Shown here one piece after another: positions 25,841 through 32,938 of a DNA stretch of 42,604 nucleotides. The notes under the pieces were generated by a model. That model was not told the DNA's origin. It worked only from the letters and a program-made list of their open reading frames with translations, and ran no database searches. The stretch comes from an uncultured Candidatus Saccharibacteria bacterium (lineage in GTDB: Bacteria; Patescibacteriota; Saccharimonadia; Saccharimonadales; CAYGIR01): the NCBI GenBank assembly GCA_964349985.1, contig CAYGIR010000001.1, positions 1 to 42,604 on the forward strand. Reading direction: 5' to 3'. Numbering within the stretch: position 1 is the first letter of the stretch; every line of letters starts with the position of its first letter. A program made the position numbers and the translations under genes.

Positions 25841-26830
25841 ATGGAAAATCAACCGTCGGACGAAAATGAACTGAATACGTTGGAGGAGTCAAGCACAGAG
25901 CTTGACGGTCAAGAACCAACCACGACTGGGACAACTAACGAACCTGTGTCTACCGCTGTTCCTAGCCCAAAAAAACAATTTAGCCTCAAGGGCGGCATTC
26001 AGGGCTTAATTGGACGTCTTAATATATATTTGCTCATATTCGTGCTAATCATCGTACTGACCACCGGCTTTACAATCGCGAGTATCCAGCGAAACAAAAA
26101 AGAAGACACTCCGGTGTCCATAGAAACTCAGGCTCTAACAGAAGAAACCCTCAAAAAGCTTAATTCCAGCGATGCCAAAATTGGTGATCCAAAACAAACA
26201 TTATTGGTAGAGTCCAACGCAATATTCGCTGGCAAAGTATTGATAAAGGATAGCCTTGACGTAGCCGGAACCATAAAAGTTGGCGGAGCACTAAGTTTGC
26301 CTGGATTAACGGTCGCCGGAAATAGCACTTTGGACCAGATTCAAGGCAATAGCTTGACTATATCCGGAGATGCCAACATTCAAGGTCAGCTGACAGCCCA
26401 AAAAGGCATCACAGTCACTGGGGGCGGTAGTTTTGGCGGACCAATATCCGCGCCACAAATCACAATCCAGAGCCTTCAACTAAGTGGAGATTTGCAGCTA
26501 CAACGCCATATTGATGCCGGCGGCACGGCTCCAGGCAAAACCGATGGTCCCAAACTCGGTTCTGGTGGCACATCCAGCGTCAGCGGAACAGACACAGCAG
26601 GTACCGTAACAATTAATCTAGGGGGCAACCTTCCGCAAGGTGATGGCTGTTTTGTAACTATTAACTTCACCCAAAAATTCAACGATATTCCACATGTTGT
26701 AATTACGCCGATTGGACCCGGTGCCGCTGGTCTAAACTATTATGTCAACCGAACGAATACAAATTTTCAGGTTTGCGCTACCAATGCTTCATCCGGTAGT
26801 TTCTCATTCGACTATATAGTCATCGATTAA
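25841..26830 (+). CDS. Membrane-anchored protein with a beta-helix-like repeat stalk and a C-terminal H-type-lectin-like domain
   Basis: Acidic, Thr-rich N-terminus and TM IYLLIFVLIIVLTTGFTIASI. Repeats: VLIKDSLDVAGTIKVGGALSLPGLTVAGNSTLDQIQGNSLTISGDANIQGQLTAQKGITVTGG. The C-terminus VTINFTQKFNDIPHVVITPIG...VNRTNTNFQVCA...FSFDYIVI fits the H_lectin pattern by eye. Confidence 0.5.
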   Translation: MENQPSDENELNTLEESSTELDGQEPTTTGTTNEPVSTAVPSPKKQFSLKGGIQGLIGRLNIYLLIFVLIIVLTTGFTIASIQRNKKEDTPVSIETQALTEETLKKLNSSDAKIGDPKQTLLVESNAIFAGKVLIKDSLDVAGTIKVGGALSLPGLTVAGNSTLDQIQGNSLTISGDANIQGQLTAQKGITVTGGGSFGGPISAPQITIQSLQLSGDLQLQRHIDAGGTAPGKTDGPKLGSGGTSSVSGTDTAGTVTINLGGNLPQGDGCFVTINFTQKFNDIPHVVITPIGPGAAGLNYYVNRTNTNFQVCATNASSGSFSFDYIVID

Positions 26831-27114
26831 ACATCCAGAAACACGACGACCTCGTCTTTTTTTACATGCATAATGCCACGTGTAATTGTCACCTTTTCTT
26901 CTTGCTCGCCATTGCGTATAACAATCTCACAAGGGCTTAAAAGCGTCATGAAATTGTGATGACCCGCCAAAATATCAAACGGACCAGTGAGATTTTCGGC
27001 CGATATGCTTTCTGCCTGCCCATCGTAATAGACTTTAAACGGAGCATAGACTTTGACATGCATATCACTCAATGATTTTGGTGCTTGTGTCTTAGTTACT
27101 AATTCATCGGACAT
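26827..27114 (-). CDS. atpC: F1 epsilon-like subunit (beta-sandwich domain only)
   Basis: The 95 aa sequence VKVYAPFKVYYDGQAESISAENLTGPFDILAGHHNFMTLLSPCEIVI...ITRGIMHVKKDEVVVFLD matches the epsilon N-terminal domain. There is no C-terminal helical hairpin. Confidence 0.7.
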   Translation of the reverse strand: MSDELVTKTQAPKSLSDMHVKVYAPFKVYYDGQAESISAENLTGPFDILAGHHNFMTLLSPCEIVIRNGEQEEKVTITRGIMHVKKDEVVVFLDV

Positions 27115-27127
27115 AATTAATAATCTG

Positions 27128-28435
27128 TTAAGTTATGATTTCTTCTATGCTACGCAAAGTCTCTTCACGGGTGAATAAGTCACCGGGAACATCCGTGTGT
27201 TTGGTCATAACATTCATGTTTTGGGTGAAGTTTTTGATCAGTTTTTTTGCCTTGGCGTAATCGGCACGATCGGCCGCCGATAATTCATTTTCGCCAATAA
27301 TGGCAATGATACTCTTGAGCGATTCATATTTTTGTAGTAATGCCTGTACCTGAACGCTCAACACATAGTGTCGATCACCAACAATGTCAGGGGTTAGCAA
27401 TGATGAAGTGGTTTTATTGAGATCTACGGCTGGTCGGATCCCCTGTTCCGCCACCTTTCGGGATAGCACAATGATTGAATCCATTTCGTGCTGGATGAAC
27501 TGCACGGCCGGGTCAGACAAGTCATCGGCAGGCACGTAGATTGTTTGCACTGATGTTATAGAACCGTTTTCATTGGAACTAAGCCGGTCCTGTAGCATTT
27601 TGACATCGGAGAAAATGGTAGATTCGTAACCACCCTCGTTAGGAACTTGATCCAAGATTGTTGATAACTCGTTTTTTGCCTGTATATAGCGATACATGTT
27701 ATCAGCAAAGAAAAGTATATCTTTGTGCATTTCATCCCTGAAGTATTCGGCACCCGCCGTAGCCGCAATTCCAATCAGAGACCGTTGAACCGGATTTTCA
27801 TTCATCTGTCCAAAGAACATGCAGGTATTTTCCAGAAGTCCTTCGGCGCGCAACGTATCCCATAGTTCGTGACCCTCACGAATACGTTCACCTACACCAG
27901 CAAAGAAAGACAAACCGCCACTGTTTTTGGCAATATTGTTGATCAACTCCATAGTAAGAACTGTTTTACCAACGCCAGCCCCACCAATAATGCCGATCTT
28001 GCGACCCTTGACAAAAGGTGTGAAAAAATCAATTACTTTAATGCCGGTTTCTAATATTTCCGGTTTCGCCACCTTGAACTCATTTGATCGACCGGGTAGC
28101 TTTAGAATATCCTTATAAACTAAATTTGTGGCATTGATTGGTGGCATCCCGTCAAGCGGGTCACCAATAGCATCCAGGATTCGTCCAATCGTGGGTTCAC
28201 CAACGGGGATTTCTATACCTTTATTGGTACGCGTAACCGTCATACCCTTTTGAATCCGACGATCTGAACGGATATTCAAACACATCGCTATACCACCGGA
28301 TTCTATGTGATCAACCAGTAATTTGGTATTCTGACCATTATCAACAATAACTAATTCCCCAACGCTTGGCACGTCATCATCAAATCGCGCCCTCACAACT
28401 AAGTCTTTGATGGTCAAGACAACGCCGGTACTCAT
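27128..28435 (-). CDS. atpD: F1 beta-like catalytic subunit (divergent)
   Basis: Walker [19 protein letters not shown], Walker B-region [11 protein letters not shown], and [19 protein letters not shown]. The DELSEED region reads [10 protein letters not shown]. Confidence 0.85.
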
Positions 28436-29298
28436 TATGCTGACTCCGCTAATCTGGTTTTTTTCATGGCATTGATGATTTCCTTTAGCCGCTCGTCTTT
28501 GATCGCGCGCCTGGAACGATTGTAGTCTAGGTGCAGTTCGTCCTTTGCCTCGGTTGCTCGTTGATTAGACGCACTCATTGCGCGAAACCGTGAAGCATAC
28601 TGAGCCAGTTTGGAATCCAGAATCAACTGGCTCATGGCAATATGCATCATAGATCTCTCCAGGTGATCCACTACGTCATAAGCACTCGGCTCAAAAATAT
28701 AATTGGCCTCACTGATAATATCTTCCGATTCGTCGGAATGTTTGCCTTGTTTTTGAACCGCACTGGACAATTCTATGCGTTTTACATCTTGCACCATCAA
28801 AGAAACATATTCTTGATAAAAGACGCTGGTTGTTCGATATAACTGGACCTCCCGAATGATCGGAGATACATTAATATTTTGATCTTTGGTAGGTAGTTTA
28901 AAGTATTTTTTGTAGGAAATTCCACGTTGCGCCAACTGAATCGCACCGTGATGTCCAATCACTAAAATCTCATTTTTGTCTTTATCGTAGCTACTCAGCA
29001 TCAGTTTGATCAGCTTTTGATCAATATCACCACTAAAGCCACCTTCTGCAGTAATAATAATATAAAGCTCTTTATCGCTAACCTCTACCTCGGCGTTGGT
29101 ACGTCCAAACCCAAAAACCGCACTTACCCTCAGCTGGGAGTAAATACCCCAAAGCTGATCAAAGAATTGGGTCGCTTGTAATACCTGATTTTTGATCTGG
29201 GCAATGCGCATACTGGCAATACCCTCAAAAACATTAGTCAGCTCTGCCAGAGTGCCCATAGCCATTTCGTCACGTTCAATTTCGTTGGGTCTCCTCAT
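28435..29298 (-). CDS. atpG: F1 gamma-like subunit
   Basis: [17 protein letters not shown] (compare canonical ITSDRGLCG) and C-terminal [48 protein letters not shown] (compare canonical ESxASE...RMxAM...NxxRQ..IT.EL.EI). Confidence 0.8.
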
Positions 29299-32009: not shown

Positions 32010-32032
32010 CTATGCCCACCCCGTTACTTGTC

Positions 32033-32881
32033 TTATAACCTTAAGATTAAATATACTCCAAAAACTCCCGTAATGAAAATAATTATACCAGTCAAAACTA
32101 CTTGTAGCATACCGCGGATAATGGATTTTCGACTTAAAGGGTTACGACCTATAGAGATAATCCCACTACGCACCCCACTAAACAATAAACTACCCGCCAC
32201 AACTGCGGTAATCCCGAAAACAAGAACGCTCACGTATACCCTAGCGGCATTAACCGGCTTACCAGCTATTGTTTCGGCAACTTTTCGTAAAGCACCAGGT
32301 AGGTTTGGTTCTACTGCTTTGAGTAGAGGGTTTTTGGCAATTCCTACATCAACTTCAATACGCCCGATATCCACCCGGTGTGATGCTCCGGTGCTATCCT
32401 TGACATCCATAGTACTGATAACCCCTTTGCTGCCATCAAATTCGGCAACCGCTCTACCGATTACGAATGGTTGAATCGTCCCAGCTTTCATGCCAATACC
32501 CGCTAAAGCTGATACTACAATATAATCACCAATTACAATCTTACCCGCTTGAGTGCTCACCAAAACTTCACTACGGCCATTATTCGCGACGAAAACTTTC
32601 TGCCCATCGCTTGCCAAGGATATCGGGGAATCGTTGGAATTTACCACGACTCCATGCATGTGTTCAGAAGCGTCACTATCTACCGGCTCAACTTTTGTGA
32701 CATCGTTCTTTTTCAATCGCACAATCATGCCACGTTGCAGGGCTTGATCCGCATAATAACCTGTTGTAACAGATTGCGCGCTAATCGGCGAATAAACACT
32801 GGCAGCAATCAACAACTGTAGTCCAATCAATGCGAGTATGCGTTGCCAAGTAAGATAGTTCTTTATTTTTGTCTTGATCAT
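32033..32881 (-). CDS. Signal-peptide protein: ~190 aa extracytoplasmic beta-rich domain fused to a C-terminal c-subunit-like helical hairpin lacking the carboxylate
   Basis: Signal peptide ...SVYSPISAQS. The C-terminus VLVFGITAVVAGSLLFSGVRSGIISIGRNPLSRKSIIRGMLQVVLTGIIIFITGVFGVYLILRL has two Gly-rich TM helices joined by an R-N-P loop, like F/V-type c subunits. Neither helix contains a D or E. Confidence 0.55.
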   Translation of the reverse strand: MIKTKIKNYLTWQRILALIGLQLLIAASVYSPISAQSVTTGYYADQALQRGMIVRLKKNDVTKVEPVDSDASEHMHGVVVNSNDSPISLASDGQKVFVANNGRSEVLVSTQAGKIVIGDYIVVSALAGIGMKAGTIQPFVIGRAVAEFDGSKGVISTMDVKDSTGASHRVDIGRIEVDVGIAKNPLLKAVEPNLPGALRKVAETIAGKPVNAARVYVSVLVFGITAVVAGSLLFSGVRSGIISIGRNPLSRKSIIRGMLQVVLTGIIIFITGVFGVYLILRL

Positions 32882-32909
32882 AGGACTTTGGTATTTTAGT
32901 TATAATAAA

Positions 32910-32938
32910 ATTATAGACTTAATTAACCAGCTTCGCAA
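32910..32938 (-). promoter_or_regulatory. Candidate promoter of the F1-like operon
   Basis: The minus strand reads TTGCGA-17 nt-TATAAT. The -35 lies inside the 3' end of the upstream cysteine desulfurase gene, and the -10 is 28 nt upstream of the 282-aa gene ATG. Confidence 0.55.

Follow-up and report, generated by a model that had tools for sequence, protein, structure and literature searches.

What can an F-type ATPase do when its operon encodes neither subunit a nor an ion-binding subunit c? This question is raised by seven genes at 26827-32881 of a 42,604-nt stretch of DNA (the whole of which is called the window below) from an uncultured member of the order Saccharimonadales (Saccharibacteria). 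The original prediction, made from the sequence of the window, had taken the host for a bacterium like those in the Candidate Phyla Radiation (CPR), and Saccharimonadales is indeed a CPR lineage. We find that the operon keeps the catalytic head and the stalk of an F1Fo enzyme and that a 282-aa protein, here called p282, holds the place of subunit c. Comparative analysis suggests that the operon probably encodes a separate paralogue of the F-type ATPase that has no subunit a and hydrolyses ATP.

The seven open reading frames (ORFs) are co-directional on the minus strand, and most of their junctions overlap. In gene order, they are p282 (32033-32881, 282 aa, secreted or membrane protein), a b-like stator stalk protein (31389-32009, 206 aa), a divergent delta/OSCP (30812-31399, 195 aa), alpha (29295-30815, 506 aa), gamma (28435-29298, 287 aa; Pfam ATP-synt, E 1e-30), the catalytic beta (27128-28435, 435 aa), and an epsilon consisting of the N-terminal beta-sandwich only (26827-27114, 95 aa). 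The overlaps are 11 nt between b and delta, 4 nt between delta and alpha, 4 nt between alpha and gamma, and 1 nt between gamma and beta, with gaps of 23 nt between p282 and b and 13 nt between beta and epsilon. A check of ORFs and junctions returned the same seven ORFs, strand, coordinates, gene order, and junctions as had been predicted.

The catalytic head and the stalk

The Pfam models matched alpha, beta, gamma, and the N-terminal domain of epsilon. In NCBIfam, the F1Fo equivalog models were the best match for each subunit, yet all scores were under the curated cut-offs, with 407.5 bits against 462.9 for beta (atpD model), 377.7 against 484.5 for alpha (atpA model), 89.5 against 194.5 for gamma (TIGR01146), and 47.8 against 67.3 for epsilon. 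The beta subunit was 40% identical to that of E. coli, and its best matches in the PDB were ordinary F1 betas, such as that of Fusobacterium (6q45, 344 bits), with 284 bits for the beta of the Mycoplasma mobile G1-ATPase.

Relatives of beta were found in at least 417 GTDB species, and 80 loci were taken for comparison. Among 71-81 orthologues, the P-loop Lys/Thr, the catalytic Glu (GVGERIREG), the Walker B Asp, and YVPADD were invariant in beta, as were the Arg finger and the unusual P-loop GDGKSGKST in alpha. The DELSEED region of beta reads NELSAAD, which was kept in the orthologues. The alpha subunit is shortened at its N-terminus, and epsilon is without the C-terminal helical domain, with a median length of about 100 aa among its orthologues. 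The original prediction had pointed out GDGKSGKST, NELSAAD, the short epsilon, and a Pro-rich, charged tail on alpha; all of these details are present, and both motifs are kept in orthologues. Judged by residue conservation, the alpha3beta3-gamma-epsilon head is divergent but under selection, and it is predicted to be catalytically intact.

The C-terminal tail of alpha (window 29295-29400) is rich in Pro, Ala, and charged residues and varied from 5 to 187 aa among relatives; it looks like a disordered, fast-evolving appendage. At one related locus (L051:7665-9028), alpha was split in two ORFs by a frameshift or an assembly error, the sole sign of decay among the 80 loci.

The two stalk genes were recognizable to different degrees. 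The 195-aa protein matched the NCBIfam delta model over its full length at E 0.03, and a profile search of the PDB returned OSCP/delta exclusively, with weak matches. Its AlphaFold2 (AF2) model, built with 43 homologues, had a predicted local distance difference test score (pLDDT) of 78, and the top 42 PDB matches of this model in Foldseek were delta/OSCP without exception, with E 8.7e-4 and a probability of 1.0 for the delta of E. coli. Profile and fold together identify the protein as a true delta/OSCP. For the b-like protein, one N-terminal transmembrane (TM) helix followed by a long helical region was predicted, and the matches to Pfam ATP-synt_B (E 1e-3) and to the NCBIfam alt F0 B model (E 6e-3) were both weak; a sequence search of the PDB gave no match. 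Right after the TM helix, residues 48-96 (window 31724-31870) form a 49-residue block, DVEHIFNDEFREELRNRGRLHFEKIIGENAMFLQQDLRLTTSQLNEYMK, that is near-invariant within the clade; its conservation greatly exceeds that of the other parts of the operon, an unusual property for b subunits. This block was not conserved in a sister subclade (locus L093).

The protein in the c slot

A total of 1471 database homologues of p282 were found, none with a Pfam domain. The protein starts with a cleavable signal peptide (about residues 1-36). A beta-rich domain outside the cytoplasm (38-183) comes next, followed by an amphipathic helix and by a C-terminal hairpin whose two helices span residues 212-246 and 251-281 in the AF2 model (pLDDT 82). 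In the alignment, the ectodomain was moderately conserved and the hairpin highly conserved, with an invariant G-R-N-P-L in the short, positively charged cytoplasmic loop. TM2 was without an acidic residue in 159 of 165 homologues. In BFVD, the ectodomain matched domains of the phage appendage, tail, and decoration type (E 3e-9, probability 1.0), and in the PDB it resembled capsid decoration proteins; a search of PHROGs returned nothing significant for it.

Like the product of atpE, p282 has an N-out, loop-in, C-out topology, is encoded directly upstream of b, and carries an R-N-P loop (R-Q/N-P in c). In Foldseek, the hairpin was superposed on the F-type c subunit of Chloroflexus (9itt) with a TM-score of 0.84-0.86, a root-mean-square deviation of 1.8 Å, and 22% identity, and it was 31% identical to the c subunit of A. 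woodii. Profile searches of the PDB with full-length p282 and with the hairpin alone found no c subunit. As a c subunit recognizable by sequence, p282 was ruled out, given no PF00137 match, no PDB profile match, and hhalign probabilities of 3.6-6.6%. Thus p282 is c-like and not a c subunit, the likeness being one of structure, position, and motif only.

It had been proposed that the slot was occupied by an unrelated-looking gene and that the head was coupled to a non-Fo membrane module. The slot is held by the 282-aa gene, but the C-terminal hairpin of its product is c-like in topology, loop, and predicted fold, and the description as unrelated was too strong. The second proposal was not borne out, since the operon keeps a b-like protein and a true delta/OSCP and p282 ends in a c-like hairpin. 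The complex is a stripped, remodelled F1Fo, not an F1 joined to unrelated proteins as in mollicutes.

Absence of subunits a and c

All ORFs of at least 50 aa in the window and in the 80 related loci (about 1.3 Mb) were searched with hidden Markov models (HMMs). No match to subunit a (PF00119) or to subunit c (PF00137) was obtained in the operon, the window, or the 80 loci, while a bovine a fragment and a spiked-in c subunit, used as controls, were both detected. The claim that the operon has neither a nor an ion-binding c was thus upheld by Pfam, NCBIfam, and the controlled HMM searches, which found none. Further, a second F1 set near the operon was not found in the window or in the 80 loci of about 21 kb each.

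Relation to the housekeeping enzyme

If the operon has no a or c, is it the housekeeping enzyme of the cell or an additional one? Southlakia epibionticum, a cultured relative, has one canonical operon, AtpI-a-c-b-delta-alpha-gamma-hypothetical-beta(458 aa)-epsilon(141 aa), which is SEML1_0349-0358 and is flanked by NrdH and FolC (Wang et al. 2023, PMC10633639, supplementary gene table). In the same genome, SEML1_0664 to 0656 reads MetRS-TatD-hypothetical-hypothetical-cysteine desulfurase-YdcF-MnmA-AlaRS-PilM (PMC10633639), and this block corresponds to the window neighbourhood, with the seven-gene operon and the surface genes of 19472-26830 both missing. Because the canonical operon of Southlakia is located elsewhere and the syntenic interval is without the operon, the window operon is an extra locus and not a positional orthologue.

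Gene counts in complete genomes, obtained by BlastKOALA, are available from Table S5 of PMC12592800. One gene each for a, b, c, epsilon, alpha, beta, and gamma is listed there for TM7x and RAAC3. For Ca. Saccharimonas aalborgensis, GWC2_44_17, and Ca. Mycosynbacter amalyticus, a, b, c, and epsilon are again single, and alpha, beta, and gamma are counted twice (PMC12592800). Only the alpha, beta, and gamma of our operon are near the family thresholds, so doubled alpha, beta, and gamma is the pattern that this operon would give, and loci labelled Ca. Saccharimonas sp. do carry it. The same source lists several Saccharimonadia bins of the order CAILAD01, one of them 99% complete, with alpha, beta, gamma, and epsilon and no detectable a, b, or c; its authors comment neither on the doubled counts nor on these bins (PMC12592800). 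The expectation that the operon is not the ordinary housekeeping set agrees with the three complete genomes of relatives that have two sets of alpha, beta, and gamma and a single a, b, and c, and with its position away from the canonical locus of Southlakia.

Distribution of the operon and the adjacent surface block

The genes for b, delta, alpha, gamma, beta, and epsilon were found in every locus with enough sequence. Three of the contigs with the operon are near-complete, namely CAZQHP010000001.1 (774 kb), DASZVP010000002.1 (737 kb), and JARXKN010000001.1 (640 kb). The p282 gene was directly upstream of b in 54 of the 62 loci with enough flank and was missing in 8. Within the clade, such adjacency is weak evidence of function because synteny is generally high there. 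A sister subclade (P0274) is more informative in this respect. Its beta, publicly labelled 'F0F1 ATP synthase subunit beta [Candidatus Saccharibacteria bacterium]', was 47% identical to the window beta, and the same seven genes (270, 204, 159, 469, 275, 442, and 86 aa) stand in an unrelated neighbourhood. The 270-aa protein was a full-length homologue of p282 (28% identity, E 2e-18) in which SIGRNPL is kept; the b-like protein matched that of the window at 27% identity, and the delta-like protein matched as well. As the sister subclade has the same seven genes elsewhere, with homologous p282, b, and delta, the seven-gene unit is ancestral. The 282-aa gene, which had been expected to be syntenic in relatives if it belonged to the system, is so in the 54 loci and also in this deeply diverged clade with its other neighbourhood.

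Between epsilon and MnmA, the window contains a block of seven genes for secreted or anchored proteins (19472-26830) with weak Pfam matches. They encode a 329-aa bactofilin-like protein on the plus strand, proteins of 228, 262, 479, and 347 aa, a 331-aa protein resembling WxL-interacting proteins, and a 304-aa PKD-like protein. The product of the 329-aa gene (25841-26830, +), which was found in 59 loci, is a TM protein whose beta-helical region is bactofilin-like; the gene is convergent with epsilon, and the two stop codons overlap by 4 nt (26827-26830). The 331-aa protein had a weak WxLIP_PGBD match and a C-terminal anchor, and three proteins of the block have a signal peptide and the C-terminus ...GTYT.......P[TF][YF]. 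We take the block to be reminiscent of the WxL/Csc surface-complex loci of Firmicutes.

Presence of p282 and of the surface block was then compared in the 51 loci with flank on both sides. Both were present in 41 loci and both absent in 7; p282 was found without the block in 3 loci and the block without p282 in none (Fisher p = 1e-6). In the double-absent loci, epsilon abuts MnmA. In the alpha/beta/gamma tree, these seven loci are spread over three or more separate clades, indicating repeated co-loss of p282 and the block with the six ATPase genes kept. A relocated p282 was looked for in the p282-less loci, and no ORF with a GRNP loop was present within about 21 kb; on the 773,622-bp contig of L007, none of the closest p282 homologues was found. 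In the sister clade, the p282 homologue lies 6-23 nt upstream of b, and the surface block is absent from the neighbourhood. The co-loss cuts both ways, as it links p282 to the surface system, yet p282 is not indispensable. The surface block may be part of the same machine as the ATPase.

The region downstream of epsilon differed in other subclades. In a third subclade (L087:2502-9672), epsilon was followed by a protein with an anchor resembling the 331-aa protein and then by eight consecutive small genes (150-207 aa), several with N-terminal TM segments and none with a Pfam match. In two other subclades (L093:11587-12003 and L085:1889-2260), a convergent gene for a receiver-domain response regulator was located just downstream of epsilon.

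Genomic setting and promoter

The flanks of the region are housekeeping genes, namely MetRS, TatD, a NifS-like desulfurase, MnmA, AlaRS, FtsA/PilM, and YceG. Between TatD and the desulfurase, at 34096-34765, there are two small overlapping ORFs, for which gene callers give 106 aa and 122 aa and which match Southlakia SEML1_0662 and 0661 in position. These two Southlakia genes are unannotated and were essential or growth-defective in transposon sequencing (Wang et al. 2023, PMC10633639). Just past the end of the window, at the end of the source contig (L081:1-330, contig k141_563132), a gene for an rve-family integrase/transposase was seen.

The original prediction had assigned the operon a promoter of its own. 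The sigma-70-like match TTGCGA-17-TATAAT (32910-32938, minus strand, 10/12 matches), which overlaps the cysteine-desulfurase-like gene upstream at that gene's 3ʹ end, is real and scored best in the region. With 13 promoter-like sites found and 16 expected in shuffled sequence, it is statistically undistinctive, and because the sites are not above the shuffled count, it is a consensus match and no evidence of a promoter.

Comparison with known F-type and F1-like ATPases

Compared with canonical F1Fo, the operon has homologous b, delta, alpha, gamma, beta, and epsilon in canonical order, and the catalytic residues are kept. It differs in that there is no a, the c slot is held by a 282-aa ectodomain protein without the carboxylate, epsilon has no C-terminal helices, and the alpha P-loop is GDGKSGKST where the canonical one is GDRQTGKT; judging from relatives, it occupies a separate locus and is probably extra to the canonical operon.

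The F1-like X0 ATPases of mollicutes, of which Type 2 is the gliding G1-ATPase of Mycoplasma mobile and Type 3 is associated with MIB-MIP (PMC3369863; PMC12994834), are the obvious comparison. They too are an alpha/beta/gamma/epsilon set without Fo a and c, extra to an F1Fo as is probable for the operon here, in a seven-gene cluster of a genome-reduced, host-dependent bacterium, with a genomic tie to cell-surface protein systems and a presumed function as ATP hydrolase. In contrast, they have no b/delta stalk and an alpha without the delta-binding helix, whereas the stalk and the canonical order are kept here, and neither their 12-TM protein nor their cytosolic protein of 19-35 kDa is present. 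Membership in Type 2 or Type 3 was rejected by the family models (score against cut-off: MSC_0618_beta 367.7/570, MSC_0619_alpha 255.7/520, MMOB1670 338.6/850, MMOB1660 320.7/600), by the presence of the stalk, and by the lack of a 12-TM gene. Since beta is nearer to canonical F1 (344 bits) than to the G1 beta (284 bits), the origin of the operon is independent of mollicute X0, and the likeness between them looks like convergence. The proposed analogy to mollicute X0 holds for the F1-like set without a and c in the operon, which is probably an extra one, and for the genomic link to surface proteins, but did not extend to the family models and the stalk content.

N-ATPases are likewise a second F-type operon beside a housekeeping enzyme, but their order is atpDCQRBEFAG and they keep a, a Na+-binding c, and AtpQ/R and have no delta, whereas the order here is canonical-like with delta. 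The alt_F1F0 models were below cut-off (beta 369 against 752, alpha 314 against 750), and with the difference in gene content, N-ATPase membership was rejected. FliI/SctN is also an F1-related ATPase, but its hydrolysis is coupled to a membrane export gate in place of a rotor driven by ions, through the stalk-like partners FliH, which resembles b/delta, and FliJ, which resembles gamma; those enzymes are homohexamers without an alpha/beta pair or an epsilon, and their models scored about 185-195 bits here against cut-offs of about 600.

In full-text literature searches, F1-like ATPases were described in mollicutes only, and no second F-ATPase was discussed for Saccharibacteria or CPR. No paper describing such an operon was found, in agreement with the novelty that had been claimed for it. 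In public annotation, these proteins are plain F0F1 subunits or hypothetical proteins.

Proposed mechanism and alternative explanations

Having no half-channel subunit a and no protonatable site on the rotor, the complex would not be coupled to an ion gradient. Because ion gradients and ATP cannot interconvert without a and the rotor carboxylate, an ATP-hydrolysing motor would be expected. Gamma and epsilon may engage p282, assembled as an oligomer and possibly a ring, through its cytoplasmic R-N-P loops, and torque or a conformational change could then cross the membrane to the p282 ectodomains. The target of the ectodomains would be a system at the cell surface, plausibly the secreted proteins of the WxL-locus-like block next to the operon. 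The paralogue may have arisen independently by the stripping down of an ordinary F1Fo and would work like the surface motors of mollicute X0. We regard this coupling of a p282 ring to the surface as possible and put it forward tentatively. Its most specific version, in which hydrolysis would spin or rock a c-ring-like p282 oligomer whose phage-appendage-like ectodomains drive or assemble a WxL-like surface complex of an epibiotic CPR bacterium, is a speculation that we consider rather unlikely to be right in full.

Several observations weigh against an a-less hydrolase with p282 in the place of c. Any TM hairpin tends to match c subunits in Foldseek, and hhalign gave a probability of 6.6% for the p282 hairpin against c, or 3.6% with a 165-sequence profile; the alignment covered the loop only (22 columns), was in register, and beat 10/10 column shuffles. 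Seven or eight lineages have an intact b-delta-alpha-gamma-beta-epsilon without p282, so the core can be maintained, and perhaps can work, in its absence. A b stalk without a as its anchor is a further difficulty; a ring that turns in a fluid membrane can do work only if one of the partners is held in place. Finally, we infer the co-occurrence of the operon with a canonical a/c operon from the KEGG Orthology table of other Saccharimonadales and a pattern match. ATP hydrolysis, rotation, and a canonical enzyme in the source genome are likewise predictions.

How, then, does a dedicated a-less hydrolase compare with other explanations of the same operon? The main rival is that the operon supplies a second F1 head and stalk for the canonical Fo, an isoform for different conditions, with b to epsilon docking on the canonical a/c-ring and p282 being a member of the surface system. 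It would explain why p282 and the surface block were lost together on three or more occasions with b-epsilon staying intact, why a b/delta stalk, which normally serves to hold subunit a, has been kept, why related complete genomes have one a and one c, and why sequence comparison gives no significant similarity between p282 and c. It does not sit well with the p282 homologue 6-23 nt upstream of b in a sister clade lacking the surface block, or with the exact atpE slot, the c-like hairpin, and the R-N-P loop of p282. Moreover, the CAILAD01 bins without detectable a, b, or c, one of them 99% complete, suggest that some genomes have F1 only and no Fo to share, and with a beta 40% identical to that of E. 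coli and a very divergent gamma and epsilon, docking on the canonical c-ring is less likely. We judge a shared Fo unlikely. It is more improbable still that the operon is an ordinary housekeeping F1Fo, the only F-ATPase of the cell, that evolves fast in the manner common among CPR proteins and has its atpB and atpE at another place in the genome. Split atp operons with atpB and atpE apart are known in Helicobacter and Campylobacter, public pipelines label the proteins 'F0F1 ATP synthase subunit beta', and beta, with 344 bits to a canonical F1 beta of the PDB and 284 bits to the Mycoplasma G1-ATPase, is nearer to the former, all of which would fit. But Southlakia and TM7x have a complete canonical set, that of Southlakia at another locus and with a NifS-MnmA interval free of the operon, and three complete environmental genomes have two alpha/beta/gamma sets. 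The subunits here are below the equivalog cut-offs, whereas those of Southlakia are named normally; epsilon is without the C-terminal domain that the 141-aa canonical epsilon of Southlakia has; and a conserved non-c gene holds the c slot.

A decaying remnant, that is, a duplicated atp operon without a and c drifting to a functionless pseudogene, is scarcely credible. The missing a and c, the loss of p282 in some lineages, the split alpha gene of L051, and the dispensability of the canonical F-ATPase in Southlakia could be read in this way, but intact ORFs with translational coupling are kept in at least 80 species, the catalytic residues are invariant, the b-like protein has its 49-residue near-invariant block, and several deep subclades, with betas about 47% identical between them, keep the seven-gene order.

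Implications

The a-less hydrolase, if confirmed, would bear on how the energy metabolism of these bacteria is described. Saccharibacteria, a widespread group of very small parasites, are the best-studied CPR lineage, and metabolic reconstructions routinely show their F-type ATPase as a proton pump or as an ATP synthase coupled to protons. Should a second, channel-less F-ATPase be present in many environmental members, the KEGG-module calls of 'present' or 'complete' would partly miscount a different machine.

F1-like ATPases apart from ion translocation have so far been a matter of mollicutes only, where they serve gliding and immune evasion. If the proposed mechanism is true, this would be the second independent F1-like motor for surface functions after mycoplasmas and the first c-type rotor with an ectodomain. 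An independent case would suggest a recurrent route from ATP synthase to surface motor, here with the stalk kept and a c-like ectodomain protein in place. As Mycosynbacter is cultivable and genetics exist for Saccharibacteria, the operon may offer a tractable system for the transfer of force across a membrane without subunit a.

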